A DNA stretch of 64,000 bases. Origin: Bacteroidales bacterium (GTDB lineage Bacteria; Bacteroidota; Bacteroidia; Bacteroidales; UBA3824). Position 1 is the stretch's first letter. Every line of letters begins with the position of its first letter. Below are positions 6,729 through 60,853 of the stretch, one piece after another. The stretch spans positions 7,159-71,158 of the forward strand of contig JAFPYR010000017.1 in assembly GCA_017412115.1 (NCBI GenBank), given 5' to 3'. A program made the position numbers and the translations under genes. The notes beneath the pieces were generated by a model. The model did no database searches and had not been told where the DNA came from. It saw only the letters and a list, made by a program, of their open reading frames with translations.

Positions 6729-6745
6729 GATGAATTATTTTTTTA

Positions 6746-8764: not shown

Positions 8765-8807
8765 TCTTTTTTGTTTGGAATAAAGTTTTTTTCAGGGCTG
8801 ATATAAC

Positions 8808-8849
8808 AAAAAAATGCCGTGAACTGTTTTAGCAGTCCGCGGCATTTTT
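8808..8849 (-). terminator. intrinsic terminator of the giant gene (potentially bidirectional)
   Basis: The minus-strand RNA is AUGCCGCGGACUG-CUAAAA-CAGUUCACGGCAU followed by U7. The 13-bp stem has one mismatch and one G-U pair. The hairpin starts 27 nt after the TAG stop. On the plus strand a T-run also follows the stem. Confidence 0.7.
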
Positions 8850-8872
8850 GCTTATTGAAATTTGCGAAATTT

Positions 8873-11800
8873 CTATCTCAGAAGCGTTACGTTTCCGATT
8901 TGCTTGAAGATCTTACCGTTTTCAAATGTACATCTGCACTTGAAGACGTATACATCTTGTTTGCAAAGCTCGCCTCTATAGTAACCGTCCCAACCGATAT
9001 TCGGATCGTGAGATTCGTAAATCTTTTCACCGTAACGGTTGAAGATTTCAAGAGTATAAGTACCTTCCTTAACACCGTTTCTCGGGTACGGTAAGAATAC
9101 GTAGTTGTGGAACTTAGTTTCAACACCACCACAAGGTCCTGCCGGATTAGGAACGAATGCTGTCGGGAATCTCAACATACCCTCCGGTTCAACTCTTACG
9201 TGTCTTTCAGCTGCCTCAGCAGAACAATTATGTTCAGAGGTTACTTTCAAATTAACGTAGAAGTCGCCAGCCGTTGTGTAGTAGTGTGTCGGCTCCATTT
9301 CGTCAGAGGTTACTCCGTCGCCGAAGTCCCACTTGTAAGTTGCAGCACCTACCGAAGTATTGCTTGTGAACAACGGAATGTTCGGCAATCTTACCGTATC
9401 AGGACGGGTTGAGAATTCAGCTATCGGGGTCGGATATATAATCATCGTATCCGTTCTCATGTAAGCCTCACCCTTAACACCGGGTCCGAAAGCGTACTGA
9501 TACATATAGTATTTTCCGACTTTATTGAACAAGTACGTTCCGTTTTGTCCGTCAGGAACAACGAAGCTTGCTTGAAGTACCGTTGAATCCGTTACGTCGT
9601 AGATGTCCCATCTTACAGAATCTGCGAAGTTCACACCTTCAACCAACTCGTGGAGCGTCGGGTTACAACCCGTATTAGATTTAGCACCAATCGTCTTGGT
9701 CGGAGCCGCAGGTTCTATCGTAATCTTAGCAGTATCACTGGTAGAACAATGTTTGTTATTAACATCAAGAACTATAGTGTACTTACCGTAAGTTGCGTAC
9801 TCGTGGATTTGGGTCTTCTTGAAGTCAGTGTTGTCTTTCCAAACATCACCTGAATTATCACCGTAATTCCAAGAGTATCTTACATCAGCACCCGGAATTG
9901 AATCCGCAAACATCGAAACTTTCATGTTCGGTTGTTTGTATGTAAGTCTTGCAACATCAATATGTGCTTTCGGTACAGGATAAACCGTTACCTGCATTGA
10001 ATCTGTCGTACGACATACATCTCCCGGTATCTTAATGTTACTTGTCAACCAAATCGTGTAAACCGTATCCTTGTAACCCTCGTTATGGAACTTTTGAGTT
10101 ATAATCGAATCATGATCGTTCGTATCATAAGAGATTATGTTACCGAAGTTCCAACGATAGAATACTTCTTCTTCCTTGTAAGTATTATACGTTGTATTCG
10201 CAATCTTAACCTCGAACGGACTACAACCTGATGCTGTTCTCGGCTCAATTGTGAAGTCAGGCTCAGGAGCTACGTAATATGTAACCTTAACGGTATCATC
10301 AGCATAACATCTCTTGAAGCCTACACCTTCCATATCAGGAGTATCAGTCGTAGCATCAACAATTCCGTGCCATACAAGAGTATTGGTCATCGGTTTGATT
10401 CCTGTAATTTTTGTAACAGAAGACTTGTTGTTCTCGTACTTAACACCACCTATCGGTGTATCCCAATAACCTGAAACGCTTGATACTCTACCAGCTTCCT
10501 CAAGTATAGGATTGTTCAACGGACCTCTTGCTCTGATTGTCGTTGTATCCTCGCACAAGTACTGGTCTGCACCGGCGTAAACATCGAAATCAAGATTGTA
10601 AATTACTACAGAGTCCATAGCCCTGAAACCGTTTTTAACAACATTCCAATAAAGAACGTTTCTGCCTCGGCTCAAATTGTAAACCTGAGTACCTGCTTTG
10701 GTTGAATCAGTGAAATGAGCAACACCGTTAGAACCTGATGTCCAATAAGCAGCTGCACCTTCGATTTCTTGAGCCTCAAGATAAATAGGTCCATCTTGTT
10801 TTTCACTACAGATTGTCCTATCAGTACCGGCCTCAACCTTGAATGCAATATAATTAATAGTAACAATACTCCTTGCCTCACATTGAGGTGTTAATAACGT
10901 ACCGTTTTGATCTAACGTACCACTGAGTTTTGCTATCCACATCCATTCGTTGATACCTTGAGAAAGTCCCGAAATCTTATAAGTATCCGGTTTGGTAGCA
11001 TCAGTAACTTTTTCCGGTTTACCACCACCGATTGAAGGTAGCCAATATCCAGTATAATTAGACATTATTCTCGGTGTAATTTCGATACTGTTCTTAAGCG
11101 TCTGTTTTACATTCTTCAGAGTCGTCGTATCAGCATCAGTATCAAAATGGTAGGTCTTAATATCTACCGAAGCCTCAGCCGTACAGTTGGTTACTTTATC
11201 TTGAATAAACCATGTAAAGGTATTTGAATAACCATTACCGTCTCTGTCGTAGTACAAACCTACTACTTTTGAGTTGTACAACGTGCTGTTTTCAACATGT
11301 GGACCATCACCGTAGTATGCTACAGGTCTTGAGGCAACAGAACCTAATGACCAATAACCTATTTGATTTTCTGTAGGCGGTGTACCGGCCAATATTGCGA
11401 ACGTATCACAAATCTGCTGATCAGCACCGGCAGTAATGTCAATTGTCGCATTATTAACGATAACCTCCTTGAAGGTTTCACAGGTAATCTGGTTACCGTT
11501 TTGTACAATCCAACGAATCTTATTAGGACCTTTACGCAAACCGTGTACTTCGGCAATATTAGCCGTACTCGGAGTTATTTTACCTGTTCCGTCGGTTATC
11601 TTCCAATGACCCGTACCCTCTGACTGTGTAGCCTGAAGGTTGGTGTAAGGTGTACAAGTTGTCTTAGAACCCGAAAGTATATCAATGTCTACGTGAACGT
11701 TCTTAACAACTACATCCGCCGTTGCAACACAACCGTTCATTTCTACTGTCCAAGTCAATGTCGTCGGAGTAGAATTTCTCAAGCCATAAACCTTAGTTCT

Positions 11801-17800: not shown

Positions 17801-20800
17801 ACCGCGTTTTTCCGTCCATACAAATTTCGCTTTGTCTGTAAGACCGCTTACTACAATCTTATTAGTACTTATATTGCCTTCCACAATCGTAATACCGTCA
17901 GGAATTGTCCATTCGCCCATTCCTTTCGGCTGGCTTGCCTGGATACTAATATCATTAGAACCGCAAACATTACGCTTATTATCAACAACATTCAAAATCT
18001 CAGTCGTAAAGCTGTTGTCAGTAATTTCTACAATATTTTCAGCTTTACATTTCCTGTCTTCAGATTTTACAACCCATTTGAACTCGTATGAATCACCTGA
18101 AAGACCGGATACCGTAGCAGAGTATGATGTAGAGTTTTTAATAGTAATCTTATTGTCAGGATCACTAAAGTTCTTAACCCATTCACCGAAAGCATTGTTA
18201 TTCAAATCGCTTTGGCTTGCCTCAAGCTTTATGTTGTTTTCTTTACAAACCGTAAAGTTTGCCGGAGGATTAGAAGTAACCGCTGAATTCGTTACGGTAA
18301 CCTCTGCCGTCTTAATATCACAGTTGCCTTTCTGAACGTTCCATGTATATCTCGTTGAACCATGAGAGAATCCGGTTACTTCTATAGATTCAGTAGCAGT
18401 TGAATTAGAGGTAAGTTTAACACCGTTAGATGTCCACCAACCGCGAGCTGCTGACTCTTCAATACTATAAGCAGCAAGTGTAAGTACCGTATCAGAATTA
18501 CATACCGTAACATTTGAGCTAATCAATTTAGCCTCGTAGAAGGTATTGGTAACATTAACGGTTGCAGATGTTTTACAAATCGTTGAAGAACCGTCACCTT
18601 TAGCACGACCTACCGTCCAAGTAAATGCCGTCGTCGTATTCGGTTTCAAATCGGTAACCTTAACCTGACTTGCAGTCGTAGCATTGTTTTCGAAACGAAC
18701 ACCGCTGTCATCAGCCGTCCATTGTGTAAACGTTGCTTTTTCATCAACATCCGTAGCCGAAAGTGTAACAAAATTATCACAAATTACTTCACCGTCGTTC
18801 GGACTGTGGATAACTGCCTTATTCGGCAAGTTGTGAATTATAGTTACCTCACGGGTATCAGAACAACCGCCGTCTATTCTGCTAACGTGCCATACAAATT
18901 TGTTGCTTGCCTGATTGTCAAGACCGCTTACGATTGCGTTAGGATCGTTAGAACCGTTAGCATAAAGCGAACTGTTAGAGCTTACGAACTTGATACCATC
19001 AGCAGCCTCCCAATAACCGGTAGTTCCGCTTGGCAAAGTAGCTTTCATCTTGTATTCGTCCTTACAATCGGTGTAACCCAACTGTCCTGCCATAAACTCG
19101 TTAGCATTGAACATCTTATTCGTAACCGTTACGAAATCTTGTTTTTTGCAAACAATGATGTCGTTGCCGTCAGAGTCTTTACCTTCAAGGTAATAAACGT
19201 TCCAAGAGAACTTGTAATCACCCTTCTTGTTAAGACCGCTGACTGCCGTAACATAACTTGTAGAATTTGCAATCAAGTTAGTTGCAGTATAGCCGGTAAA
19301 GCCTTCAGGATATGACTCTAATTTCCAATAACCTTTGGCATTAGGTCCGTAACCTGAAATGTTCTTTGCCTGAAGTTCTTTGCCGTTAATTGAAAGTTCG
19401 TCAGCAGAACAAATCATTCTCTTAGACTCAATAACTTGTGCCTCAACATAATTGTTAGATACATTTACGATTCTCTCATCAGAACATTCACCCTTAGTAA
19501 CCGTCCAAGTAAAGACTTCACCGCTCGAAGGAATACCCGTTGCTTCAACTGTATATACAGAAGTTTCGCTTACGGTATTGCCGTTTACAAGGAACTTAGA
19601 ACCGTTGAGAGCCGTCCAAGTACCTTTTGAACCCGGATAAGCCGTAACGTTGTCTTCTGCCTGCAATGTGATTGTATTATCACAACTTGAAAGTTTGATT
19701 ACTTCGTTAGAATGCGGATAGTTTCCGTAATTAGCTTCAACATAATTATTAACTATCGTTACAGAAGCCTCAGTCTTACAATTACCTTTAGTAAGCGACC
19801 ACTTGAATACGTTGTTGTTAAGGTCAAGTGCCGTGAATACTACCGTAGTCTGATTTGCACTATAACCGTCTTTGAGTCTACCGCCGCCGAGAGAACTCCA
19901 TTCGCCCGTTACCTTATCTTTGTCGAAGTCCTCAACATCATAAGGTTCAGTGTTAAGAGTTATCTCGTTGTTACAAGTGTAATCAGCTGAAGTAATTTCG
20001 GCTGCAACCGGCATATTGTTGGTAAGCGAAGTAGAAGCTTCGTATTTACATTCCGGTTTGTCGGTTGCTTTTACAGTCCAATAAACCGTATTGTCGCCGC
20101 GGAGCATATTATTAATCGTTGTCAAAGAACTTGACACTGCGCTGAATGTTACACCTTGATCTGATGTCCATTTACCGGTGTAACCGCTCTGAGGTATTGA
20201 ACCTTCAAGATTTGCAGAAGTACCGCAGATAACTTTTGCACCGTCACCTTTAACAACAATCTGAGGTTCATATTTGTAATTCGTTACCTCAACCGGGAAC
20301 GACGTGCTACAATTTTCAAGAACTCTGTCGGATACAGTCCAAATCAAAGTCGTCTTAGAATTATCAGCCAAACCTCTGAACCAAGTCTTTGCTACCGAAG
20401 TAGTCTTTTCGTTATTATCAAAGTAACCCGCTAATGCAGATCTTTCCATAGACCAAGCTCCGTCGTAACCTGTTGCTGCAGCAGTTGCGTTCAACTGAAC
20501 GTTACCGTCGCAGGTCGTAGTATACTCCTCTGCCAAAGATGCACTTGCTGTAGGTTTGCGGTTATAAACAATTACCTTATCCTCAGCAGGACAACTGTTA
20601 CGAACTTCAACCCATTTCAAAGTTGCAGATGTCTTAACACCGCTGATGTTGATAATAGCCGAGGTTGAATTATCAATTGACACCTCTGTAGGATTCCATT
20701 CCCAGTGTCCTTCACCTACAAGGTCAGAAGCCTTAATCTTTGCCGTTTCACCGCAAATGTTATGCGACTGATTTCCTAAAGCATCTTTATCAACATCAAT

Positions 20801-23800
20801 ATCAGCGTCTACGGTAAAGCCTTTGTAATAAACCGTTATTTCATCAGGCTCACTCTGACAACCAGCCGGTGAAGTTACTGTCCAAGTAAATGTATAATTA
20901 CCACCGATGATATTACCGAACTTCGTATAACTATCAGTTGAATTAGTAAACGTTACGTCTGTGTAATTCAAGCCGCTGGTAGCTTTCCATACACCCGTTC
21001 CTAAAGTAGGAGCAGTAGCAGAGAGTTCATAGTCAGATTCTTTACAAACAACCTTATCCTGACCTGCATCAGCAGTAACATATTCGTTAAGAACTTTAAC
21101 AGAAGCTGTCTTATCAGGACAAGAACCGTTGCCGACAACCCAAGTAAATGTTACGGCTTGTCCCACCGGCAAGTTCGAAACATTAATTACATTGTTTGTC
21201 GTATTGTCTTGGAATTCAACCATAGCATTTGAAGACTCCCAGTGTCCGCCAACTCCGTATTCCTGTTTTGAATTGTTAGCAACCAAACGAACCTTAGAAT
21301 TACATACCAAGTATGATTCGTTATTATTAACCACCGGAGATTTTATCTCAGCCTCATAATACTGGTTGGTAAGAGTTACGGCATCTTCCGAGTAACATTC
21401 CTTACCCTTATTACCGTTAGCTCTTGCTATTCTCCATGTAAAGGTTGCCGAAGTATTGTTCGGAATATTGGAAACAACTACATTGTTAGAACAAGCCGCT
21501 GTTGAAGATACAGGCGAAACATTTCCGTTGTCATATACCCATGTTCCGATACCATGTTCCGGTTCGTTAGCATTAAGATTATAAGTATCTGTACAGATAG
21601 GAATACTCTTAACACCATTAGTGTAAATCCTTGCCTTATCAACACTTTCGTTGTGGATAACAACCTGAGCTGAATTTTCACAACCGTAGGGGTTAGTTAC
21701 CGTCCAAGTAAGTTTGTTAGAAGTAGCATTGCTCAAACCTACAACCGTTGCAGACGGATCGTTTGCTGCATTCGGATACATGGTTGAGTTAGAGGTCTTA
21801 AATGTTACATCCGTAGAAGAAGACCATTTTCCTGTCCAATATTTTGAAACACCATCAACAACAACCGGGTCGGTAGATAACGGATTAGCTTGGAGTGCGT
21901 ATTCGTCGCTACAATCCGTCCAATCCTCTGAACCGGCAGAAACGGTGAAGTTTCTGTTGGTTACCGTGAAGGTTGTAGAAGTGTTACATTCCCTGCCGTT
22001 AGCGGTATGAGCCACGCTCCATGTAAACGATGCAGTATTACCGTTAGCAAGGTTGTAATATGTAACCGACTTACCGGTTGTTTCAGTAATGCGATTAACG
22101 CCGCTGTTAGAGAAACTACCAGACTCGGCTTCTACCGTCCAAGTTCCATGAGTATTAATATCGTTCAAGTCGTTGTCGGTAGAAAGTTCAACAGTACCGT
22201 TACATGTGAACGGCTTAAACGTTGCAAGCGCTTTATACTGATCGTTGTAAATCGTAATATTGTCGCTTTCCTGACAAGAACCGTTATCAACAGTCCATTT
22301 CAAGGTTACACCTGCATTAGTAATGCCGTGAACATAAGTGTGCGGGTCGGTTGAATCGTCAAACGTGATACCTGCAACACCTGCGGGTACGGTTTCCCAA
22401 TATTGAGATACAACGCCGCTATTCAAGGTTTCACCGTGGAGCTGGTAATCACCGCCGCAAGCACTTGCGGAAACTCCGTCTGCAACCTTAGTATCGGCAT
22501 CTACCGAGAACATCTTGTTCTGAATAGAAACAACCGTCGAAGTATCGCAGACATTTATATCTGCTCCGTCAGCACTAATCGTTCTGTAAACATTCCAAGC
22601 AAACGAGTACTGACCCGTCTGAGAAAGACCCGTTACCCTTGTATCGTTTGCAGTAGAATTTGCAATAACGATAATCGAAGGATCAGCAATACGAGTGTCA
22701 GGATAAGATTCAAGTGTCCAATATCCGTGAACATTATTACCGTAAGCCGTCATTGATTCAGCTGACAAATCCACGTATGAATCACAGATATAATTCTTAC
22801 TGTCCTTAGTATCAGCCGCAGGTACTATACCATAGTTATTGATAACGACTTCGTAAGAAACACCCGGACAATTACCCTTATTAACAGTCCATACAAAGTT
22901 TTCACTGCTACCTCTTGTAATACCGCTAATCTCAATTTTGTAGTTAGTAGTCTCGTTGTCAATACGAGCATTACCTGTCAGCGTAGACCAGTGTCCCGAA
23001 ACTTTATCATCACCGTGAGGATTAAGAACCGCAGGATTTTCGGCAGCTAAAGTATACGAACCGCTACAAGTATAAGCATCAGCAGGTTTCTTACCGATAT
23101 TAACTTTATTATTAACAACCGTTATATGGTCTTCGCTTGCACAACTTAACTCCTGACCATCACGGTAAATTCTCCAAGTCAATATATTGTTACCTTGACT
23201 CAAATCGGAGATTTCAACCTCGTTTGCAGTAGAAACACCGTCTTTGAAGTTACCTTCACGATTATTAAACCAACGTCCGTGAACACCGTCTGCAAGAGGT
23301 GATGCCGTAAGTTTCTGAGTACCGTCGCAAGTTTCAACTGTCTCTTTGCCTTCATTTGTCGTGATATTAGCAAGACCGGGCTGAATATTCTTAATAACGA
23401 CGTCTTTGTAATTAGACTTACAAGACTCTCCGTTGTTGTTAAGAACAGTCCAACGGATAGTGTTTTCACCGAGTTGCAAACCTTTGACAACAGTCTTAGA
23501 AGCATTAACACTCACGAAGGTTATCTTATCCTTAGAAGTAAGTGCCGACCATGTGCCGGTGAAACCTTCCTCAGGCATATATCCTGTAACGGTAGTTTCT
23601 GAACCGCAAACCTCAGATAGAGCTTCAACGGTAGGCGTATATTTGTTATTAATCAAAGTTACGTCTCTTGAATCAGAACATTTACCGTCCTTTGTAGTAA
23701 CAGTCCAACGCAATTCTACTGAAGTATTTTCTTTGCCCTCAGCAAATACGTAAGTTGCGTTGTAAACACTTACATTTCCTGAGAATTCGCCGATTTCAGT

Positions 23801-26800
23801 AGAAACAACTTCCGACCATACACCCTTGTTTTCAACCGGATCTACGGCTTCAAGAGTTCTTTCTCCGTTGCAAGTGTAGTAAACCTTAGGTCCTGCATTC
23901 ACACCCGGAATATTGTTAATAACCGTAATAGCATCTTGTGCCTCACACTTGTTGTATCTCTCATGCCATACAAAAGTAGCCGAGGTATTATTGCCGAGGT
24001 CAAATTTCAAGGTTTCATCAGTAGAGTTAGACAAAGCCGTTACGCCTGAAGGCATCGGTTCCCACCATCCTTCACCGCCTACATTAATTGTCTGAGCGTT
24101 GATTTCATTCTTAGCACCACAGAATGTATGAGTCTTATCGCCCGTTGTTGCATCTGTTACAACGTCTTTACTCATATCAGCCTTGGTTGTAAAACCGTTT
24201 ACGTGTACTTTCTCGAAAGCTTTAGCATCACAACCTTCAGTACCGTTGGTTTCTACAAATCTCGGAGATTTAACCCACCATGTGAAGTTGTAATCACCGC
24301 TTGTGAAACCGTAAGCTTTCGTTTCATAGTTAGTAGAATTAGAGAAGCTAACTTCATTGTAAGAAACGCCGTCCGTACAAGACCAATAACCTTTCCATTC
24401 TACCTCGTCGTGATCTTTTGCACCGAGATGTTCGATTTCGGTATCACAAGTCCAAAGTTCCTTATCTGCCACAGCTTTAACGGTTTCGTTGTGGATTACC
24501 ACTTGAGCCGTCTTTTCACCGCATACTCCGCTAACCGTCCAAGTGAATGTCGTAGCACCGTAAGGCAAGTTGTAAGCCGTAATATTACGAACACTTGTTG
24601 TCTTATCAGTAGCATTAGAATTTTCACCGAACGTTACTTGCGTGTTGTCAGCTGACCAAACGCCCGTTACACCGTATTTGGTAACATCGTTGGCGTTAAG
24701 ATTTATATAATCACGGCAGATGTATTGTTCTGCAGTTGAAATCGAAGCTTCGTAGCTTCTGTTCATAACTGCAACACTTGCCTCTGATACACATGTAGTA
24801 TTGCCGTTAGGCTCTGTAATTCTCCAAATGAACTTCTGCTCCTTGTTAGCTGCCAAATCATAAACCGTTATGATAGCATCAGTGCTTGTATATCTCTCTC
24901 CGTTCTTATTCGGATTCTCTGCATATTTAACACCGTCAGGCAAAGTCCAAGAACCCGTACCCTTGCTCGGAACATTAGCTGAAAGTTTCAATGTAGTTGC
25001 GCAATGTTCGTAAGTAACAGGTTTGATAGAAGCCTCCGTAACCTGATTGTTAGTAATAACTACCTGCTTAGAATCTTCGCACTTGTCGTTTGCTCCATCG
25101 CCGTATTTATTAGTAACAGTCCATGTAAACGTCGTAGTCGTCTGGTTGCTCAAATTAGATACTTTAGCATTCTTATTTGTGCTGTTGTTAGCTTCAAAGA
25201 TTACGTTAGTATCATCAGTAGACCACAGCCCCGAAACTTTGTCAGAAGATATTGATTGCGGGAACTCACCTTGCAATGTATATGTACCGTCGCAAGCTGC
25301 CACGTCGTTTTCACCGGCAGAGAAGGTGAAGTGATGGTTTGCAACCTTGAATGTCTCTTCCGATTTACAAGTATTAGAATTTGACTTGTTAGTCAAAGAC
25401 CATTTGAAGGTTACGTTAGCACCGTCACCCATGCCGCGGAATGTTGCAGCAGAGCCTTCAGCAGTTACAACGTTATCAATATTAGCATCAAAAGAACCTT
25501 TCGTAGCCGTAGTAGACCATGTACCTTCCAAAACGCCGTCAATCAACTTATTGGTAGATGACATCGTTATAATACCGTTGCAAGTAGCAGGATCAGCTTC
25601 AATCTCAGGCGTGATTCTGTCGTTGTAAACCGTTACAATATCGCTTACGGGGTTCGGACAAGAAGACTTCGTTACCGTCCATTTAAGTTTAATACCCTCG
25701 TTTGTAATACCAGTTACGGTTACTCTTGAATCACTGTTAATAGAACCCGTACCTGAAACGATTTCCCATTTCCAAGAATCTGTACCGTTTACTCCGTAAT
25801 TACCTTCAGGTTTAGTCGGCGTAATTGTAATTCTATCACCGCAAACGCTGATTACTTTATCAACCATTACTGCACCGTCGTCAAATTTAGCGGCTGCATC
25901 AACCGTAAATTCACCCTGCGATACTGAAAGGCTTTCTGATTTTTGACAAACCTTCTGACCTTTAACCATTCTGTAAACAGTCCATGTAAACTCGTACTGA
26001 CCGTTAGCGGTAAGACCGCTTGCAGATGCTTGATAGTTGGTAGAGTTGTTAATAGTTACATCAGAGTAAGAAATCTTGGTCTTAGGCCAATCAGTCATCG
26101 ACCACTCTCCGAATACATCTGTACCAACTCTGCCGTATGCAGCAATTGATTCTGCCTTAAGATCTACATTATCACCGCAAATCATCAAGTTTTTGTTCTT
26201 GATTTCGGGTTTAACGTAGTTGTTAGTAATCTCAACACTTTCAGATTTGGTACAATTACCCTGATGTACAGTCCAAGTGAATATCTCCGTTGTATTAGGA
26301 TCAATACCATTAACGGTTACAACGTATGAATTTGAACTTGAACCGAAATCAATCTTATCTGAACTCCATTCACCCCAAGCATAATCGCTATTGTAATCAA
26401 GAGGATTAGAAGCTTTAAGCTCGTAATCACCGCCGCAATAAGAATCATTTTGCAACGGCTCACCCATATTAATCGTATTATTAACGACTTTTACAGATGC
26501 CTCCGTAAAACAATCTTCTGAACCTTCACGGAAGATAGTCCATTTAAATACCGTATTGTTAGGAAGAAGATTTTCAACGCCGACTTCCGTAGAAGTTGTC
26601 TCTCCATTATATGTAACCGCTCTGTTAGCAGACCATTTGCCTATTACTCCGGTTTCAGGCTGTTCTGCTTTAAGAGTTATCGTATTATCGCAACTTTCAG
26701 TCTTCATAAGATCCGAAATCATAGCGATACCCGGTTGAACATTGTTAATAACAGCACTAACGGTATTTTCACAAATCGTACCCGAAGTATTTGTAACTGT

Positions 26801-29800
26801 CCATTTAACAATATTAGTATTGTGTTTAAGACCGGTTACGACTGTTTTTGAAGATTCTGCATTTTCAAAATCAATACCGTTGCTGAGTTTTGACCATTTA
26901 CCGGTAAATCCTGTTGCAGGTATAGAACCAATAATGTTAGCCTTATCTGAACAAATCTTAGAAGGATCAACTTCCTTGATTGTAATAGACGGAGTATATT
27001 TGTTATTTATAACATTAACATCAACACCCGTAGAACATTCACCGTCTTGTGTCGTTACCGTCCATCTTACGGTTGCAGTAGTAGCATCTTCCGTTTTATC
27101 AACAAATACGTAAGTAGCGGTACTTAAATTCAACGCACCGGAGAAATTACCGGGCTGCAATGTTTCAGACTTAGACCAAACACCTTTGTTAGGAGCAGGA
27201 TCGGAAGCTACAAGTGTTGCAGTACCGTCGCAAGTATAGAACGGTTGACGAATATCTACTTTAGGTGCAACATTAACAATTGTAATCTCATCTTTAGGAG
27301 TACAATGTCCGTTGTTGTCATGCCATACAAACGTAGCTCTTGTCTGAGTTCCGAGGTCATAATTCAAAACATTAGAAGTAGACTCGGTTGTATAAGTTAC
27401 ATTGCTCGGTCTTGTCCAATAACCCGAACCATCAGAATATGAAGGTTTAGCAGTTATGAAACCTTTTGCACCGCAAACCTCGTGAGTCTTCTTGCCGCTT
27501 AACTCATCTGTTTTGATCTTCTCAAAAGCGTCATCGGCATATACCGTAAAGCCCGAAGGATGAACAATGATTTCTTGTGTTGCAGCACAACCTTTAGCAT
27601 GGTTTACATCATTCTTACGACTCGGAGATTCCAATGTCCATGAGAACGTGTAATCACCGGCACCTATACCATAAACTTTAGTTTCGTAATTGGTTTGGTT
27701 TTCGTAAGTAAGACCATTTACATTGTTACCTTGAGTGCAAGACCATGTACCTTGAGCTTTCCAATCAGCCTCAGGTATATCAGCTTCGAGACTTGCCTCT
27801 GTATTACAGATATAAATCTCTTTGTTTGCCGCAACGGTAACCTGTTCGTTGGTAACTTTTACGGTAGCTGTCTTTTCATCACAATCACCGCCTTTAACAT
27901 GCCATGTCAAAGTTACGGGAACGCCGTTAGGCAAGTTGTAAACATTTACCTTAAACAACGAAGATGAAGCAGCATTTGCATCTGCACTGTTGCTACCGAA
28001 TGTTACTTGAGATTTATCTGCCGTCCACCAGCCTTTTGCATTGTATTTATTTACAACATCTTCTGCCTCAAAAACTTCAGTCGTGTAATCCTGACATACT
28101 ACTCTGTCGCTACTCTTAATTACGGCAGAGTAACTTCTATTGCTGATAGTAACAACATCGCTACGTTTGCTACATACAACATCATTGTTGTTTTTCTTTT
28201 CAATTACCCAAACAAACGTTGCATTAGAATTTTCAGGCAAATTGCCTACAATTATGTTAGCATCGGTAGAAGTCTTACCGTTTTCAATCGTTATGGTAGC
28301 CGGGCTATACTCCCAGTGACCATTGCCGATTACGGGAGCGTTAGCGTCAAGTGATTGACTTGATTTGCAAACAGATTGAGATTCCGTATAAATTACGGGT
28401 ATATCAACATCGTTGCTGTAAATTACAACTTCGTCTTCTTTTTCACAACCGTTATTAGTAACAGTCCACGTAAGAGTGTTACCGTCTACGCTGTTGCTCA
28501 AACCGCTGACAACTGCGTTAGAGTTGCTTGCATTATCAAACGTTACGTTAGAGCCTGACCATTTGCCTTTTGCTCCCTCAGGCATAGTACCGTGAAGTTT
28601 GTATGATCTGCTGCAATCATCTGCCGTAGCATCATCACCGGCACCGAATACAAAGTCATTATTCTTAACATTTAATACGTAAGGATCTGACTGACATTCG
28701 CTACTTGTCGTATTACCATCGGTTACATCAATAATATGCTTGTAATTCCAATAGAATTTAACATCAGCACCCTTGGTCATGTTGCGGAACGTTACTGAAG
28801 TACCGGATGCCGTATTAATTACATCCGCACCTGCACTGAATGTACCCGAAGCTTTAGTAGACCAATAACCGCTGAACTCTTCATTCAACTTGTTAGTCGT
28901 AGAGAGTGTTACCTTGCTATCACAAGTTTTATCATCAGCAGAAGCAACAGCCTGATATTTCTCATTATAAATCGTAATTAAATCAGAGTCAGAACAACTA
29001 CCGTTAGTAAGAGTCCATTTCAAAGTTACACCCTTGTTAGGAATGTTATGAACTTTTGCATTAGAAACCGTACTTGCACTGTTATCAATGTAATTAGATG
29101 CAGAAGTATTGTCTGACAATGTCCAATAACCGTGAGCACCGCCTACGGTATTAGCAGCCATTTGGAAATCACTACCGCAGATATGAATTTCTTTAGCAGC
29201 ATATCTCGTATCAGCATCGGCAATTATGGCACTGTTATTAACAATTACCTCTTGACTTGTCTTATGACAAACACCACCGTCAGTATAACCGAGATCAGTA
29301 TATTGAGTACCCGTTCTGTAAACAGTCCAAGTAAATGCGTACTCGCCTTCTCTGTCAAGATTAGTTACAACGGTTTCGTTGCTGTTAGAAGACTGAATCT
29401 GAGCATGAGCAGAAGGATCTCTTGTAATATTCCACTCTCCTACTACCTGAGTACCTGCCATCTCGTATGCAGAAAGCGCATCTGCCTTGAGCGTTACCTG
29501 ACTGAGGTCTTCTTTACAAAGCGTTTCAACCGAGTAAACAATAGGTTCTACTTCGTAGTTAGTAATCTCAACCTCAAATCCGTCTGAACAAGTATTACCT
29601 TTGTAAACCGTCCATTGGAACTTCTCTTTCGCTTTCAATCCGATACTATTAGCAGCTACGGTTGCTTCGTAATTAGTAGAATTATTAATTACGATAGTTC
29701 CGCTGTTAGATGTCCATTCGCCTCTTACCGTACCGGTATTAAGAGTTGCAGGGTTAATAGCAGAAAGATTTGCTGAACCGTCGCAAGTGTAAGTTGCATT

Positions 29801-32800
29801 CATTTTCTGACCTGCAACAACCTTGTTATTAACAATAGTTACGGTAGCATTAGACTTACAATCTTCATGACCCGCACGATAAACAGTCCATGTATAAACG
29901 TTTGCATCAGTTTCGTAAGCAGTAACCTTAACGATATTAGCAGTGCTGATACCGTTTTCGAAAGTTACGCTCTTATTAGAAGTCCATTCGCCTCTTTCGT
30001 CGCCCTTCAATGCGTCGGCTTTCAACTCGAAAGCTTGACCGCAGAACTCTTGTCCTTCGTCAGGAGTAGAAATTGATGCAACATTAGGCTGCCAATTCGT
30101 TATAGTATAATCAACATAATTCTTAGTACAATTAGTACCGTTAGCGTTGGTAATAGTCCATCTTACGGTATTAACACCGGGCTGGAGATTCTTAACAACG
30201 TTTTTTGAAGAATTTACAGATTCAAACGTTACGTTGTTAGAAGTAATACAAGACCACTTACCGGTGTAAGCAAATGCTTTCGGTGTAGTTCCGGTTACGG
30301 AAGTAGATGTTCCGCAAACATTAGCCTCTGCCGTAATAGAAGGCGTAAACTTCTGATTAACAACAGTTACATCTCTGTAATCTGAGCAAACATCGTTATA
30401 AACAGTCCAACGGAGTTGTGTTGAAAGGTCTTCTTTATCAGAAGCAAATACAAATTTTGCATTATTGGTACTTACGTTACCTTCGAACTCTCCTTCAGAA
30501 GCCGGAGCTACTTTCGACCATACACCTCTGTTAGGAGCAGGATCCGAAGCCGCCAATCTGAACTCAGAACCGTCGTTGCATGTGTAATAAGTTGCAGGAC
30601 CGGCATTAACTTTCGGTCTGTCATCTTTTACGATTACATAATCATGGCTCTCACAATTGTTATACTTAACAGTCCAAGTAAATGTTGCTTTAACATACTT
30701 TTCAGTCAAATTGAACTTGAGATTGTAATCAGTCAAGTCTGAAAGTATTTGAACATCTTCAGGCTCTACAGTCCAAGTACCTATTCCGCCGGGAACTTCT
30801 GCTTGAAGTTCACCTTCGTTAGAACAGAATACGTGTGTTTTATTGTCAGGTTTAGAAGCATCAGCCACAACGGGGAAACCGTTTACGTGAACAACTTCAA
30901 ATGCTTCCGCGCTACAACCCGTAGCACCGTTAGAACTTGAATATGTCGGCGACATTACAAACCATCTGAATGTGTAATCACCTTCAACAAGATTAGAAAC
31001 CGTGGTTTCTGAATGAGATTTATCAGCAAATACTACTGCGTCTTTTGAACTTCCGTCCGTACAAGACCAAGTACCCTTCAAATCTGAGTACGGTTTGGTA
31101 GCTTTAATTTCTGCCGTTGTACCGCAAGTCGTAGTAGATTTGTCAGCAGTGATTGTGAATTTCTCACTCTTAATCTTAACCTCTTTGGTCACCTCGTCAG
31201 GACAATTACCTTTAACGTGCCATGTGAAGGTCGTTGTTCCGTAAGGCAAGTGATAAGCCGTTGTTGAGTAAGCTGATGTTGTTTTAGCCGTTGCGGCAGT
31301 ATTATCACCGAAGGTTACGTTACTATCATCTGATGTCCACCAGCCGTTAGCACCCATACCTTCTACATCGTATGCCTTGAGCGTTACATAATCATCGCAA
31401 ATAGTCTTATTCGTAGTTTCAATCTTAGCCTCATAGTAATAGTTTCTAACACTTGCTATTGAAGACTCAGATTTACAAAGTACATTACCGTTAGCATCTT
31501 TTTTGGTAATAACCCACTGGAATTTAGCAGAACCGTTGTCAGGAAGACCCGTTACGGTAATGTTAGCAGAAGATATATTACCGGAAACAAATGTCAAATC
31601 CTCTGGATCTATATTCCAAACACCTTGACCTTGAGAAGGAGTGTTAGCCTGAACGGTAACCTGTGCCTTACAAGTCTCGGTCGGAATTGATGTAATTACA
31701 GCATCTTCAACACTATTGTTAGTAATTACAACATCATCCGTCTTTTCACAGCCTTTGTATTTAACATGCCATGTCAAAGTATTCAAATCTGCATTACTCA
31801 AGCCGTAAACAACAGATTTCGGAGATGAAGCATCACTGCCATGGAAATTAATACCTGACTGATTCCATGTCCAATAGTGATATTCCAAATCAGGATCGTT
31901 AATATCCTGTGTCGGCAACGAAGCATCCAACGCAATTGAATTCTTACAATCCGTTATAGCATCAGCACCGGCTGTGAATACGAAGTCATTATTAGAAACT
32001 TCAATTGCCAACGGCTGGGATTCACAAGCATCGTCGCCGCTACCGTTAATAAGTTTCCAATAGAATGTAGCTTTCGCTTGAGGTGTCATGCCCTTGAATG
32101 TTACGGTCTGATTCGTCGTACCATTAGCAACAATACTCTTAACATCATTACCATCACCGAATGTACCCGTTGCAGAGGTAGACCAAACACCCGTCAAGGT
32201 TTCGGTTAAAGTATTAGTCGTAGTAAGTTCGACTTCACCGTTGCAAACTGCATCTTTTGCACTTGCCTTAGGTGTAACCAAATTATTGTAAATCTTCAAA
32301 TCGTCATAATCAGAACATCTTTCTGTCTTAACCGAACCGTCTGAATTATAAACGTGATTGTCAAGTGTCCATCTTACCGTTACGCCCTCGTTAGGAACGT
32401 TGGTAATCGTAGCAGTCGGGTTGTGAATGTCGGCTGTTGCAATTACCGCCGGTGAATTTTGAGTAACAATTTGCCATGTACCTAATGCACCGTCTACACT
32501 ATTTCCTCTCAACGATACTGTGCTGCCACATTCGATACGTGAAGCATTCTTGCCTAACTTAGTATCGGCAACGGCAGAAAGCATTGCATTAGTAACAGTA
32601 ACTTCTGCACTATTGCTACAAATATTACCGAAATTCTCAACATTGCGGTAAACATTCCATACAAACGTGTAATCACCCTTGCCGGTAAGACCAGAAACTG
32701 TAGTAACGTTATTATCACTGTTTGCAATCAAAATATTTGCACTGTTAGCTATCTCATTGATAGGATAACCGTTAGCTTTCAACGTCCAATTGCCTTTAGG

Positions 32801-38800: not shown

Positions 38801-41800
38801 GAAACCGTTGTTTTCTACCGTTACAGATGTAGATGACGAACATTCCGTAACACCTTCAACACCGGCTACGGCATTAACATGATTCGTTATAGTCCAAGTG
38901 ATAACAGATTTAGCACCGGGAGCAATACCCTCATAAGTTACGGTCTTAACGTTAGAGGTTTCGGTCGTGAAATTACCAGTATATTTTTTCGACCAAACAC
39001 CGGTCAAGAAACCGTCGCCTACGTTGTTAGAAGTAGCAAGGTTTACTTTACCGTCGCAAATCGGCAACTGAGAAGTTATCGAAACCGTCGGTACAACCTG
39101 AATATTCTTTAATGTATATTTGTCAGATACTTTACAACCGTTAGAGTTCGTAATAGTCCAAACAAGCGTAACACCCGAAGTCGGAACATTCTTGAATGTA
39201 GGACTTGCCATATTAGTACTTGCAACATAATTAATTGCAGGTGTCGTACCGTCAGCCAAATACCATGCACCGGGTGCGTCGGTAGCAGTTGTAGCAACAA
39301 TTCCGTTGTATGTATCACCGCAGACATTGATTGTCTTTTCCTGTCCTACTGCATTGATACTCTTAACGGTTAAATAAACGTTCTTTTGTTGTTTACATAC
39401 TTCTTTACCTTCGTCATTAATGTGGTGATATGCAGTCCAACGGAAATGATACTGACCTTCGTGTGTAAGACCCGTTACAACGGTTTTGTTAGCAGAAGAA
39501 CCACTTACAAATACGATGTCAGACTCATTAACGTATGCTTTCTCCCAATCAACCAATTCCCAATATCCTACGGCATTATCACCGTAACCTTTGATAGAGG
39601 TAGCCGAGAGTTGATAATCAGGACCGCAAATTTCCTCAGAAACTTCTTCCTCCTTAGGCATACCGCAACTTTCAACCGTTACCGTGCTGCTTTCATTACA
39701 ATTGGCAGAACCCTTAGAAACAGTCCATGTAAATTCGGCACCCGTTTTCGGAATATCAACGGCTTTAACCTCAAATGTATTAGCACTTGCTACGGTAGCA
39801 CCGTTTACTAAGAAACCTGCACCGTTAGTAGCCGTCCAAGTACCTTTTGCATTAGCATACGTTGTTGTAGGATCTATTGCAACAAGGTCGTATGTACCGT
39901 CACATGACTGAACCGTCAAAGGCATATCAAGTTCCGCCTTAACACGGTTGTTATAAACGTTAATCGTATCAGCAGCGGCACAACTGTTATTAAGAGTAAA
40001 CGTAATAGTGTTCTTGTCTAAATCCAAGCCCGAAGCCGTAACTTTATAAGACTTATCATCGTAAGTGAAAGTAACATTAGAAGACGAAGCCTTCCAAACA
40101 CCTACAACACCGTGTTCAGGTGTTACGACTTTCAAATCAATCGAACCGTTACAAGAATTTCTGTTATCCTTAACGATTTGAGCGTCAGCAATTTTTTCAT
40201 TTCTTACGGTAACGGTTGCTTTCGAAGTACAATTCGGATTTTCATCATTTGTCAATGTCCACTCAAACGTGTTGTCGCCGTATGCCAAAGCACTTACCGT
40301 AACTTGCGCTGAATTTGTTTCAGTAAGTTTGTTGTTAGGATCCGTACCAAAATAAGGTGCAGTTTCTTTTCTCTTCCACTGACCCGTAAAGCCGGCAACT
40401 TCGTTACCAACCAAGGTTGTATAATCGTTACAAGTAACTGCATCAACAGCGTATGGTTCTGATTGCGCATATTGATTAGTAACTTCAAACTTAGCGTCAG
40501 CATAACACTCTTCGCCGTTTAATTTCTCTTTTGCCTTAATTCTCCAAGTAAATGTCTCAACCGAGTTAGGCAACAAACCTGTTATAGTAGCTCTGTTACT
40601 TTGAGTACTTACTGTAAGACCTGCTCTCGTAGTATAAATCCACTCACCGGTTTGAGTATCATCGTATACATCACCGGTAAGTTTAACAGGCTCGGTAGCC
40701 GAAGCACAAGCAGGTACAGTTGTAAGTTCCGTAACCTGAGGAGCAACATTGCTGATATTGTATTCTGCCGTAGCCGAACAACTATTTTTGATAGCAGTCC
40801 ATCTGAGAGTTGCAAATCTCTGACCCGGTTTGAGTTCGAAAGCCGAATTACCGAGCGTAGAATTTGTAACGCTGATAACATTATTACTATATTCCCAAGA
40901 ACCTACACCGACAGCCGTCAAATTACCCTTAGCACCGCAAACGGTAATATTATCACCCTGCATAGAATATGAGTTGTTGATAAAACTTACCGTAGTAGTC
41001 TCGGTACAATTAGCATTCCCTTTTGCAGTTACAGTCCATCTGTACTGATATTTACCACCGATTACGGCTTGAATATCTTTGATTTCAAGTACGTTGAGTT
41101 TAGCAGCCGTATTAGAAGGAACTGCAATATTAGCAGTCGGAGTTTTAATACATTCCCAAGCACCAGTCCAACCCGTTTCAATCGGAGTAGCCGTCAAAGT
41201 GGTTTTGTCTTCACAGATAACATTATCAACCTGCGGTTCGGTGTAAGGCGAAACCGTAACAGCGATAGGCTGTGAAAGCAAACGGTTGGTAATTTCAACG
41301 TCTTTTGACTTGGTGTTACCGCCGTTATCACCGCAAGAAGAACCCGTAATAGATGACTTAACAGTCCAACGGAATGTATAAGTACCTTGAGTTAAACCTT
41401 TTGCAGTAGCAGAATAATTGCTTTGGTTTTCAAACGTTACATATTCGGCAGCTTCTTTTCCGTCTTTCGTAGGACCGGCAATGCAAGTCCAATAACCCTT
41501 AGCATGATTATACTCGTCGGGATCTTTTGCAAGCAACGATACGGTTTCAGAACAAATAGTAGTTACTTGGTCTTTATCAATTGCAGCCTCAAAATAATCA
41601 ACTATAAATTCTCTGCTTACAGTTACGGGACACGTTGATACCGTATTATGACCGGTATTAGCTTTTGTTACCGTCCAATATACGACATTTCTACCGTATT
41701 CCATACCCGAAACCGTAGCCGACTGTTTGTCGCTGTTAGCAATCTCTGCATTTGGTGATTTCGCTTTATCAATTGTCCAAAGACCCGTAGCATCGGTAGG

Positions 41801-56800: not shown

Positions 56801-59800
56801 CGCACGAACTCTATAATTCTTACCGTTGTAAATTATATTTGTTGCAAAAACTTCAACGCTGCGATTTGAATTTCGGGGAGAACTAAATTCAGCCTCACCT
56901 TTTACAAGTGTCCATATACCTTCACCTTGCGCAGCGGCATTACCTGAAAGCGTTGTTGTATTATTCTCATTACAAAGGAACCGATCTTTTCCGGCATCCG
57001 CTATTGTAACTTTGGAATTGTAAACTACAACATCATCACTCCATTCACAATAGTCATTTTCAGTTCCGGCTTTCTTGCGCCTTGTATGCCATGTAAAAGT
57101 TGTCCCGCCAAAAGCCAAACCTTTCACACCAACAGATTCAGTACTAACATCTCCAGTAAAAGTAGCAGAAGTACCGGCAGGTTTTGTCCACCAACCTTCA
57201 GCTTTCGGTGTGAAATTATCATCAACCTTCTGGGCAGTAAGTGTAGCTGTAACGGCATTGAACTCTTCCCCTTCACCGCAAACCTCAATATCAGAACCCG
57301 CATCAGCGAAAACAGAATCGTTCTCTATGGTTACAACGTCTTCTATTTTACACGTCATCCCGCCGAGAGTTGTATAACTAACAGTCCACTTAACCTTATT
57401 CTTGCCTGAGTAACTCTGACCGAGATTACTAACAATTGTAACAGAGTTGTCCTGATTTACAATATCAGCATCAGAAAAATCACCCTCTACTCTCTCCCAT
57501 TTACCTGTACCGGGTGCGGGGTCGTTACCTGTTAAAGTTACCGGTTCTAATTTTGAACATACAGAAGGTGTACTTGCTTTTGCACTTGAAGTAACATTAA
57601 CAACATTTACAGTAACAGCGTTTTTACATCCTGTAAGTGTACCGTCATTCTTCTTAGCCTGAACAGTATATTTAAAAGTGCTAATACCGGGAGCAAGTTT
57701 TTTTACAACGGTAGAAGTGTTACTCGGACTTACAATTGTAATATCACCACCGTCAACAGCAGCAGAACTTGAAGTCCAAACTCCTACAAAGCCGGTAGGA
57801 AGATTAGAACCAGTAACAGAAATTGTTGCCGAACCACCGCTTGCAATTTCATCAATCGGTGTTGTAGTACAAATCTCATTAGCAGATAAATCAAGTTTCA
57901 ACTTTTGAATTATCGGTGTCGTATTTGCAATGGAACAATTTCCGGTCGGGCTTGTAACCGTCCATGTAAACGAAACATTACCCGTACCCGTAATCAACGC
58001 AGTCGTTTGATTAGCATTAGGATCCGTAATAGTTGCAGTACCGTTAGCTGTCCAAACGCCGGTAGTGCCGGCAGGATAACCGGCAACAGAATTAGCAGTC
58101 AATGTAATAAGACTTTGCTCTTGACTCTCATCACAAACATATTCTTTATCAACCTTAGGATCAGAAATAAGTTTGTAAATAGTCATCACATCAGATGAAA
58201 CACATCCCGCTGTAGTACCAGTAAGTGTTACCTCAACCCTATTTGCTCCTGAATTTAAATCATCAGCTTTAAAAGTATTAGTTTGAGTAGTAGATGTTGT
58301 GCCATGATATACCCATGAGTAAGAACCTGAAGAATTATAGTTTTCAGCAGTAACATCTACTGAAGTCTGATCACAAACAATCATATCTTCCGGAAGTTTC
58401 ACCTTCACTATATTATTAACATAATGGAATGTTTGTGTTGTAGAACAAGTACCTTTTGTTACTTTCCAATAAAGGTAAAGATTTCCGTTATCAAGTTCAG
58501 AAACAGTAAGAGCCGGTTCGGTATAAGTACTAAGTAACCCGACACCGTCAATAGACCACTGACCTGTAGCTCCGGCAGGAAGTGACGAACCCGTAACAGA
58601 AATTTCAGGCTTGCAGTTAGATTGGTTGAGCTGACTTGCAGCCAAAGTCAGTTTATTATAACTGATATAAATAAAATCCTCCGTTGCAGGACATGAAGAA
58701 GTAGCTGAACCTTTTACACTAACTCTAATTTTATTTGAGCCTTCATTAAGATCAGTATTCTTTAAATTAATTGAAGCTCCGGTTTCTATAGACTGTGTAG
58801 TTGATTTAGAATCATTGTACCAAGTAATACTCGGATTAGCTCCGGCACCGGTAGTAACAGCAGTTACCGTAATTTGATCATTATCACTACAAAGATTATC
58901 AGAAGTAGCAGATAACTTAACACCAATATTTTCATTTTTTAATGTAACGGCCTTTGCCTCAATATTACATCCTGCCGTATTATTAATTTTCCATGAAACC
59001 TGTGCCGTAACACCAGGTTCAACTTTTGCAGTCGTAACAGGCTTTGAAGGATCAGCAATAGTAACACCCGCACCGGCAGTCCACTCTACAACAGTACCGT
59101 TCGGATAAGCAGGAGTATTTCCGTTCATCAAAGGAGCAGCTTCCAAAGTAACAACATCATTAGAACATACTGTAAGAGTTCCGCCACTATTGACCGTAGA
59201 AGTTCCCGCAGTTGCTTTGACAGTTGTTTCTGCCGGGAATCTATAAACCGTAAAAGTTTTTTCTACATCAGGACAACCGTTCGAACCTTTAAAAGTTAAA
59301 GTAATAGGAACTGCACCATACGTAGTATTCGGTATAGTAATAGTTGTTTTGTTAGAAATTTGAGCTCCCTCTGATGTTGTTACCGTTGCAGAACCGACAC
59401 TGGTAATAGTCTTAGTCGTTTCGCCGTTACAAAGATAAATATCGTTATAATCAGCAACATTAATACCATTATTCGTAATAGTAAAATCTCTAGTATCAGA
59501 ACATTTTCCTTTTTTTAAGGTCCAAGTATATTTTGATTCCCCAGCCGACAGACCACTGACTTCTAAATTAGGAGTAGTAAATGTAATACCATTAGGATCT
59601 GTCCAATATCCTTCCATACCATCAGGGACAACAGCCACTAATTGATATGCACCATCACACGTTGTACCTGAACCATCCACACCTGCATCAATTTCTTCTC
59701 GTGTAAGCGTAATAGTATTCGATGTTACAGAAGTACCACAACTATTACCATTGGGTATAGTTGGTGTAATTTTAATCGTTAAATTAGCAGTAGTTCCATT

Positions 59801-60382: not shown

Positions 60383-60501
60383 CGTTACTTTACTTTTAGT
60401 AAAGAGAATCCGACATTTTCGGTCTTTTTCTCAAATAATAAACGTAATCAAGGGCGGTTTTAGTATACTCCACCCACTATTTTAGACCTTAAAATTAGTA
60501 A

Positions 60502-60524
60502 TTTTGTTGCATTATACAACAAAA
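60502..60524. promoter_or_regulatory. 8-bp perfect palindrome (ttttgttg-N7-caacaaaa) centred on a TATAAT-like hexamer upstream of the giant gene, candidate operator
   Basis: The arms are 60502-60509 and 60517-60524. The minus strand reads ttttgttgTATAATGcaacaaaa, about 120-140 nt upstream of the ATG at 60382. Confidence 0.3.
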
Positions 60525-60770
60525 AAATACGATAATTTTGTATTAAAAAATAATATTTTTTTGGATAAATTAATAATCAATAAGTTAGCGTAATATTTTT
60601 ATTTAAGATTTTTTTAATTTTTTTAAATATTTCGGGTAAAAAACACATTACAGACAGCACAAAACACCAAAAGCTCATAGCTAAAAAGCTATAAGCGTAA
60701 AGTTTAATTGACCATTCTCTTAGGGCTTTTCGGAACTAAACCCTAAAAAAGAGGTGTCTCTATATTTTAA

Positions 60771-60831
60771 TCAATATCGCAACCAAAATCAAATATTTCG
60801 GAACGCTTCGATTAACTGATTGCGATATTGA
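60771..60831. repeat. 12-bp perfect inverted repeat (tcaatatcgcaa ... ttgcgatattga), possible terminator or operator downstream of the SrfC-like gene
   Basis: The arms are 60771-60782 and 60820-60831, separated by a 37-nt spacer. The right arm ends 22 nt below the stop codon at 60854-60856. T-rich sequence flanks it on the plus-strand side, but there is no clean U-run for the minus strand. Confidence 0.4.
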
Positions 60832-60853
60832 ATTTATTTTGATTTATCGTTTT

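Follow-up and report, generated by a model that had tools for sequence, protein, structure and literature searches.

Does an open reading frame (ORF) of 17,169 sense codons in a bacterial metagenome contig represent one real gene and, if so, what kind of protein would it specify? The question is raised by a stretch of 64,000 nucleotides (nt) from a Bacteroidales bacterium (GenBank assembly GCA_017412115.1, contig JAFPYR010000017.1; hereafter, the window), which is part of the 141.6-kb metagenome contig ERZ27256703 and in which these codons, followed by a stop, occupy positions 8873..60382 of the minus strand. The product has a calculated mass of 1,860 kDa (1.86 MDa) and an isoelectric point of 4.8. 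We conclude that the frame is a single intact and real gene, not a set of fused ORFs, and that its product is likely to be an adhesive surface fibre of 1.86 MDa, anchored at its C terminus and delivered as a type-B cargo of a type IX secretion system (T9SS) in a herbivore-gut member of the Bacteroidales.

The original prediction, which was made from the letters of the window, had proposed one uninterrupted minus-strand gene over which all other frames are broken into short ORFs. Both points were borne out by ORF analysis of the window and by the presence of the same gene in assemblies from other samples, and the N- and C-terminal strings that had been quoted were found in the translation. The other five frames across 8873..60382 contain 418 to 2,226 stops each, and their longest open stretch is 252 codons. 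Two plus-strand ORFs inside the gene, at 42536-43252 (238 amino acids, aa) and 46061-46816 (251 aa), are the only others of at least 200 aa, and they are most likely spurious. A stop-free run of 17,169 codons would arise by chance with a probability of about 1e-513, computed with the base composition of the gene, the GC content of which (0.38 to 0.43) can be set beside that of the flanks (0.34 to 0.41). Despite 168 repeated modules in the protein, the gene is nonrepetitive at the DNA level, so that assembly from short reads cannot have been led astray by repeats: of the exact repeats in the window none is longer than 21 nt, the best match within the gene is 71% over 141 nt, and Tandem Repeats Finder reported no tandem repeats within the gene.

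In two other samples the same gene was called at 17,177 aa (SRR28201450, 66-kb contig) and 17,176 aa (SRR28201454, 59-kb contig). Over the first 9.5 kb these two copies are identical to each other; relative to the window they carry 399 substitutions and a single in-frame indel of 4 codons, with a synonymous divergence (dS) of 0.123, a nonsynonymous divergence (dN) of 0.022, and a dN/dS ratio of 0.18; purifying selection acts on this frame in the first 9.5 kb. The 3' end of the gene was recovered on three further contigs at 99.95 to 100% identity.

The N terminus (aa 1 to 41; 60260..60382, minus strand) reads as a Sec signal peptide with a KK n-region, a hydrophobic core (VAVRIFTVLSLLFIIQ) of 16 aa with a mean Kyte-Doolittle hydropathy of 2.2, and a predicted cleavage site, TSAWG|Q; Met12 is a possible alternative start. 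Cleavage before Gln is known in Bacteroidota as the Q-rule. The signal peptide is conserved in the relatives at loci L018 and L021 and in protein P0272, and in each of the six relatives examined the residue after the predicted cleavage site is Gln, in keeping with the AWG|Q site that had been put forward. The next segment, which would form the distal tip (aa 42 to 238; 59669..60259, minus strand), is predicted to be all-beta, and a Pfam scan of it returned no family. Homology searches that had been suggested for this head yielded one homologue, P0272, among 5.8 billion proteins searched, but no family assignment. Between the two proteins aa 42 to 245 are 26% identical, and the next ~160 aa are mostly identical.

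Behind the tip, the stalk (aa 239 to 16,908; 9659..59668, minus strand) consists of 168 significant copies, as detected with a profile hidden Markov model (HMM) iterated from one module, of a Cys-bearing beta-sandwich module of ~91 aa that resembles PKD and immunoglobulin (Ig) domains; together the copies make up 91% of the protein. Pairwise identity between modules averages 22% and reaches at most 54%. The conserved positions are C1, L7, A9, G17, W19 (99%), W52 (92%), C62 (96%), and N72; of these, W19, W52, and C62 are near invariant, as is a Cys at the boundary between modules. That one module motif runs along the whole frame, as had been claimed, is upheld by the HMM, which finds a single family from aa 239 to 16,908, but not in the strict form given for it, as the regular expression C-x3-D-x-V-x-[VI]-x-N has only 14 matches. 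From aa ~2,840 onward the modules are nearly contiguous, and stretches without assignment lie at aa 321-402, 1213-1350, 1677-1827, 2325-2386, 2475-2644, 2769-2839, 3157-3207, and 16722-16815. An AlphaFold2 (AF2) model of one module is all-beta, with a predicted local distance difference test (pLDDT) score of 94. The protein contains 376 Cys residues in total, and the two that are conserved in each module would probably staple each domain as a disulfide.

The modules are themselves arranged in a higher-order repeat. Module identity at a lag of 12 modules averages 0.28 overall and 0.37 for modules 80 to 120 (z = 17 versus permutation), with weaker peaks at lags of 6, 18, 24, and 36. This 12-module (~1,120-aa) super-repeat occupies aa ~6,743 to 13,761 (19100..40156, minus strand), where modules 12 apart are 0.30 to 0.52 identical, compared with a baseline of 0.22. 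The lag-12 signal indicates that blocks of 12 modules were duplicated in tandem to enlarge the middle of the protein and that these copies are now less than 55% identical.

A short stretch without assignment separates the stalk from a canonical PKD domain (aa 17,006 to 17,063; 9194..9367, minus strand; PF18911, 50.9 bits; PF00801, 35.7 bits). A second PKD match (aa ~16,817 to 16,888; PF00801, 35.8 bits) overlaps the last stalk module, and PKD domains are present ahead of the sorting domain, as had been expected. In a phmmer search against PDB the C-terminal 800 aa matched only generic PKD domains. The last segment (aa ~17,065 to 17,169; 8876..9190, minus strand) bears the motifs FPTAFVPN, NRYG, GWDG, and DVYVF and ends in GNVTLLR, as expected for a T9SS type-B sorting domain. 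These last 105 aa align motif by motif with Taibaiella koreensis P0255, which is annotated as a T9SS type-B protein, and the motifs FPxAFxPN, NR(W/Y)G, GWDG, VY(V/I)(F/Y/W), and terminal GNVTLLR are common to the segment, P0255, and homologues with PF13585; a clade-specific insertion stands in place of GDGxND. A search with the last 470 aa found 120 homologues, most of which, among those listed, carry PKD plus PF13585, many under the name gliding motility-associated-like protein, and homologues of the C-terminal domain (CTD) with 54 to 59% identity carry PF13585 in precomputed annotation. No type-A CTD (TIGR04183 or PF18962) was found at E ≤ 0.01 in the last 200 aa (Pfam and NCBIfam) or the last 1,000 aa (NCBIfam). 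We accept the predicted C terminus as a diverged T9SS type-B CTD.

The family of the stalk module, previously left unassigned, can now be given as a PKD-like Ig module of the type found in the base of GhpA (grappling hook protein A), the giant T9SS cargo of Aureispira sp. CCB-QB1, and in the membrane-proximal part of SprB-type proteins, on the strength of both profile and fold matches. In a Pfam scan of four tiles of 4,000 to 5,000 aa that cover all 17,169 aa, the first ~13,000 aa had no match, and no stalk module scanned in these tiles reached the cut-off of a PKD model (PF00801, PF18911, or PF22352). When modules were scanned singly, 11 of 89 matched K319L-like_PKD at E ≤ 1, all weakly (best E, 1.5e-5). 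Against PDB, the module profile matched GhpA with an E value of 1.6e-95 and, weakly, the PKD domains of human KIAA0319L (E, 7e-6) and KIAA1837 (E, 5e-5), and the top Foldseek matches of the module model were the GhpA base (9fly) and the PKD domain 2yrl (TM score, 0.57). Along GhpA, the profile scores 23 to 40 bits at aa 4,767 to 5,650, which are membrane proximal, and 0 to 12 bits over the stem at aa 1,412 to 4,770. The module is a distant PKD relative that current Pfam models miss.

How widespread the module is, a question that the original prediction had raised, was addressed by an exhaustive HMMER search of 1.84 billion representative proteins, of which 14,581 bear it (2,230 at E ≤ 1e-30). 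A word-indexed homology search with the module alignment gave no match at E ≤ 1e-10, because the modules are too diverged to share 5-residue words, and cluster look-ups for ten module-rich proteins returned almost no names. Architectures were surveyed in the best 150 of the 14,581 matches. Proteins of SprB-type architecture in this set have 6,000 to 7,600 aa, with ~19 to 25 modules, all within the C-terminal ~1,700 aa; among these proteins, P0095 (6,467 aa) has PF13573 SprB repeats in its body (51 bits) and 19 module copies before the CTD. In an all-module architecture, modules extend all the way between signal peptide and CTD; the set includes 21 complete proteins of this kind, the longest being one of 6,580 aa with 73 modules. 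A similar CTD terminates 70 of 151 module-rich proteins (the best 150 plus one cluster member).

Judged by its predicted architecture, the giant protein is a member of the all-module class. It shares with P0001 (6,346 aa), P0002 (6,580 aa), and P0005 (5,632 aa) the signal peptide, a module coverage above 95% in these relatives, and the same CTD type, and its aa ~11,000 to 17,169 are collinear, at 25 to 36% identity, with complete relatives of this class, the longest of which has 6,580 aa. It differs from them in having 168 modules versus at most 73, and the 12-module super-repeat zone is part of its additional ~11,000 aa. The giant's module count is 2.3 times the highest among the other complete proteins of the best 150 matches; the giant itself is missing from what the representative library returned, and very long proteins may be lacking in that library, so that the absence of longer matches cannot prove it to be the longest member. 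Together, the lag-12 signal (z = 17) and the collinear relatives suggest that the gene grew from an all-module ancestor of ~6,000 aa, partly by tandem duplication of 12-module blocks.

Type-B cargos of the T9SS are exported by Sec and then recognised by the T9SS through their CTD. On this model, Sec would export the giant protein, the modules would fold one by one in the periplasm, and the T9SS would recognise the cargo via its type-B CTD. A PorP/SprF-family shuttle or anchor, unlinked and encoded elsewhere, would take the cargo from the translocon and hold it on the outer membrane. The fibre would then project with its N-terminal tip outermost, 0.6 to 0.7 µm from the cell when fully extended; this estimate is scaled from GhpA, for which 52 repeats and a length of 240 nm have been reported (10.1101/2024.01.29.577165), which gives ~4 nm per module. 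A variable tip at this distance would allow long-reach adhesion to feed particles or other gut cells, and such adhesion is the most economical function that we can propose.

Several results weigh against the reading of an anchored adhesive fibre. Neither a PorP/SprF (PF11751) nor a PorE gene occurs in ~12 kb of sequence downstream of the giant gene or in ~13 kb upstream of it (window and loci L001 and L005 of its contig), and neither occurs beside the orthologous 3' ends in two related species (L033 and L034). The CTD falls just short of both curated cut-offs, with 32.4 bits for TIGR04131 (cut-off, 35; E, 7.5e-8; profile positions 27 to 84 of 85) and 26.3 bits for PF13585 (cut-off, 27; E, 8.2e-6). 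The tip has no recognisable binding fold, its all-beta AF2 model (pLDDT, 43) being unusable. The two conserved Cys residues per module suggest disulfides, which would be odd on the cell surface where the gut habitat is reducing, and the Bacteroidota O-glycosylation motif D[ST][AILVMT] is depleted in the protein (34 observed versus 82±8 in composition shuffles). Finally, assemblies were compared over 9.5 kb from the 5' end of the gene and over at most 8.6 kb from its 3' end, and the middle is confirmed only through the product lengths given by gene callers.

Two of these points find an explanation. The CTD scores lie just under the cut-offs because the clade has an insertion in the first motif (FPTAFVPNPAGPCGGVETKFHNYVF replacing FPNAFTPNGDGxNDxF); the type-B domain of the original prediction therefore stands on significant TIGR04131 and PF13585 matches and on the motif alignment, but not on curated thresholds. 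Without an adjacent PorP/SprF gene the giant is to be classed as an orphan type-B cargo; no T9SS core gene occurs in ~87 kb of the window's contig either. Such orphans are documented in Flavobacterium johnsoniae, in which 9 of 12 type-B cargos have an adjacent porP/sprF-like gene and the other 3 are served by one unlinked shuttle (PMC12618676). The three (Fjoh_1123, Fjoh_1720, Fjoh_4934; shuttle Fjoh_1677) resemble the giant in having a type-B CTD without an adjacent porP/sprF-like gene, although they are far smaller.

A different use of the same parts would be a grappling structure like that of GhpA, in which protomers lie side by side in a rigid tube, here of ~0.7 µm, that catches prey or partner cells, as in ixotrophy. 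GhpA (9flp/9fly; 10.1101/2024.01.29.577165) is the only solved structure with this module, and the best fold match, 9fly, is part of its heptameric base. The two proteins share a plan, namely, a signal peptide, a distal N-terminal head, Ig-like modules in the stem, and a C-terminal T9SS sorting domain in a giant cargo. The likeness does not extend far, however. Strong profile matches are limited to GhpA aa 4,767 to 5,650, and the stem modules that form most of the heptameric shaft are those that score 0 to 12 bits; in phmmer searches against PDB, the N-terminal 3,000 aa of the giant had no match, GhpA included, and its last 110 aa did not match GhpA even at E ≤ 10. The giant has no counterpart of the 1,400-aa adhesin-like hook of GhpA, as its first clear module begins at aa 239 and its tip comprises ~200 aa, and ghpB (PorP) and ghpC (PorE) lie downstream of ghpA, whereas no such genes follow the giant gene. 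The giant also differs in size (17,169 aa and 168 modules versus 5,898 aa and 52 modules) and in its host, a gut anaerobe rather than a marine filamentous predator. GhpA is reported to be glycosylated on every domain, in contrast to the depletion of the O-glycosylation motif here. Within GhpA (9flp_A), module scores at aa 1,750 to 2,580 cycle through two moderate values and one near zero, at ~249 aa per cycle, which suggests a 3-module super-repeat in the stem; the super-repeat of the giant spans 12 modules. SprB-type proteins, too, carry the module, and these are regarded as single flexible filaments. We therefore regard a GhpA-like assembly as unlikely.

Its boldest form, a multimeric rigid GhpA-like harpoon ~3 times longer than the Aureispira hook and used by anaerobic rumen Bacteroidales to capture microbes, is a rather improbable proposal. 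If it were true, contact-dependent capture or predation of the ixotrophy type would operate in the herbivore gut, and the T9SS would export and assemble 1.86-MDa protomers whose secretion signal comes last.

Also unlikely, in our judgement, is a mobile adhesin like SprB of F. johnsoniae, whose CTD would load the fibre on a gliding track so that the fibre, driven along the surface, moves the cell. The type-B CTD is shared, as is the very large repetitive form of these surface filaments, and the same membrane-proximal module block (~19 copies directly before the CTD in P0095) is present in SprB-type proteins; in addition, the orphan type-B cargos of F. johnsoniae are directed to the gliding machinery too (PMC12618676). 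The body of the giant is nonetheless of another kind. No PF13573 SprB repeats were found at E ≤ 0.01 in the four tiles spanning all 17,169 aa, with the same library that detects the repeat of P0095 at 51 bits, and the notion of an SprB-like adhesin body has to be given up. The giant is 2.6 times longer than SprB and has no sprC-, sprD-, or sprF-like neighbours; SprB is encoded in a sprC-sprD-sprB-sprF operon, whereas the giant gene is flanked by SrfC-like and Cthe_2159/VTC/DUF4956/DUF2490 genes. Rumen Bacteroidales are not known to glide.

The protein might also be secreted by the T9SS yet not retained, being released as an extracellular matrix or coat or bridging cells and particles. The lack of a linked anchor gene (PorP or PorE) and the gene's own terminator, in what is apparently a single-gene unit, would agree with release, but the type-B CTDs characterised to date route cargo to surface anchoring or to the gliding track via PorP/SprF-like proteins (PMC9143113; PMC12618676), and we consider release very unlikely. 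An artefact or dead gene, that is, a chimeric or misassembled ORF or a pseudogene not expressed as one product, is conceivable for a short-read metagenome contig and for a gene whose orthologue is broken in fragmentary contigs of related species, but it is close to refuted by the ~1e-513 chance of such a frame, DNA repeats too short to mislead an assembler, three assemblies that yield 17,169, 17,176, and 17,177 aa, purifying selection with a single in-frame indel beside 399 substitutions in the 9.5 kb compared, and a module register maintained end to end. The broken orthologues are split at ~7733-7769 of L033 by a 13-N scaffold gap and at ~2488-2548 of L034 by a frameshift without Ns, and their C-terminal parts are 47 to 55% identical to the giant; they illustrate how such giant genes come to be annotated in pieces.

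The anchored-fibre reading places the protein as a member of extreme length in a known class, that of the giant T9SS type-B surface proteins with repeats; it sets no size record for bacteria and represents neither a new kind of system nor a new mechanism. No T9SS cargo of comparable size was found in the literature and protein searches made, and the giant is by far the largest T9SS cargo found; the two giants that have been studied, SprB and GhpA, are shorter than it by a factor of 2.6 to 2.9. Since the T9SS signal is C terminal, all 168 domains would have to be made and exported before the secretion signal exists, which makes the protein an extreme test case for the handling of giant cargo by the T9SS. 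The claim that it ranks among the largest bacterial proteins holds loosely: few proteins exceed 10,000 aa, but lengths of up to 85,804 aa have been reported for predicted Omnitrophota proteins (10.1101/2023.11.21.568195). Those giants are likewise uninterrupted repeat-rich ORFs of more than 10,000 aa from metagenomes with a predicted role at the cell surface, although they belong to another phylum, have other repeat types and another secretion route, and exceed the present protein several-fold. A widespread stalk module outside Pfam now links GhpA, SprB-type proteins, and the uncharacterised all-module proteins; the practical value lies mainly in annotation and in a lead for adhesion biology.

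The pace at which the gene changes was assessed against the SrfC-like gene directly upstream (60854-63700, minus strand; PF10139, "putative virulence factor"; 948 aa, 542 bits). In the two closest metagenome-assembled genomes (MAGs) with a giant ORF (L018 and L021), SrfC is 87 to 88% identical, and the N-terminal ~2,000 aa of the giant are 38 to 39% identical. Between strains with identical SrfC, 3.7% of the giant's residues are different, identical blocks and blocks of 83 to 95% identity forming a mosaic, and the dS of the giant gene (0.12) is 2 to 6 times that of the flanking genes. We infer that the giant gene evolves much faster than its neighbours, with recombination mosaics between strains. 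A fast, recombining gene with a hypervariable distal end would fit a surface-exposed tip that binds a ligand or is antigenic, and the combination of a tip that varies between strains with a more conserved stalk suggests a specific ligand in the rumen.

The SrfC-like gene also served as a probe against one genome per GTDB species and found 24 loci, nearly all in MAGs named Bacteroidales bacterium, from the fore-stomachs of sheep, yak, and goat and from the faeces of red deer and horse; more distant matches (61 to 68% identity) include sulfidic-cave MAGs. From the sources of these relatives, the host is taken to be an uncultured member of the Bacteroidales from the herbivore gut. In six related MAGs, SrfC is followed by a giant ORF with the module; in several others, with 2 to 10 kb of downstream sequence, it is not. 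The upstream cluster comprises SrfB-like (PF07520, 997 aa), 341-aa, and SrfC-like genes and extends past the right edge of the window (L005 5275-12847). A functional link between the giant and this cluster was considered and rejected as unproven, the SrfC linkage not being constant among MAGs. In one strain (L006), an extra gene for a 552-aa DUF285/Big_3 protein (3038-4696) stands between clpP and the srf-like cluster; it is absent from the window's contig (L005).

Between the SrfC-like gene and the giant gene lies an AT-rich intergenic region of 471 nt (60383..60853, minus strand), the presumed promoter site, in which no exact match to the Bacteroidota -7 motif TAnnTTTG was found. Downstream, a terminator-like hairpin followed by a U-run (8805..8852, minus strand; -22.2 kcal/mol, z = -6.1) starts 21 nt past the stop; a generic terminator scan overlooked it, and RNA folding then confirmed it. 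With its own terminator and a 471-nt AT-rich spacer, the giant gene looks like its own transcription unit. Next comes a run of minus-strand genes (4483-8566) for a Cthe_2159 carbohydrate-binding beta-helix protein (606 aa, 229 bits) and for VTC, DUF4956, and DUF2490 proteins. The Cthe_2159 gene was rejected as a partner: the terminator lies between the two genes, and the whole run is missing behind the orthologous 3' ends in L033, where a translational GTPase gene follows, and in L034, where a DUF1292 gene follows on the opposite strand. Neither flank of the giant gene is a conserved partner.

A distant homologue does have a shuttle gene at hand. At locus L035 (8752-19038 of a 4.47-Mb contig), a 665-aa PKD plus CHU_C protein adjoins a PorP_SprF gene beside a PSD-CdsA-DUF2007-FtsH block, and the same block is found downstream of the window's region on its own contig (L001). 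The L035 site may be an old syntenic site for a type-B cargo, from which the shuttle gene was lost or moved in the lineage of the window.

Farther downstream of the giant gene, the window contains a LytTR-type two-component pair (His_kinase PF06580 and Response_reg/LytTR; 2633-4467, minus strand) and, divergent from it, a gene for a membrane protein of the sulfatase/LtaS family (655-2613, plus strand), beyond which housekeeping genes follow. The spacer between the DUF4956 and VTC genes (5878-5977) holds AT-rich tandem repeats with periods of 7, 14, and 21 nt (for example, AATTGTC in 6.6 copies).

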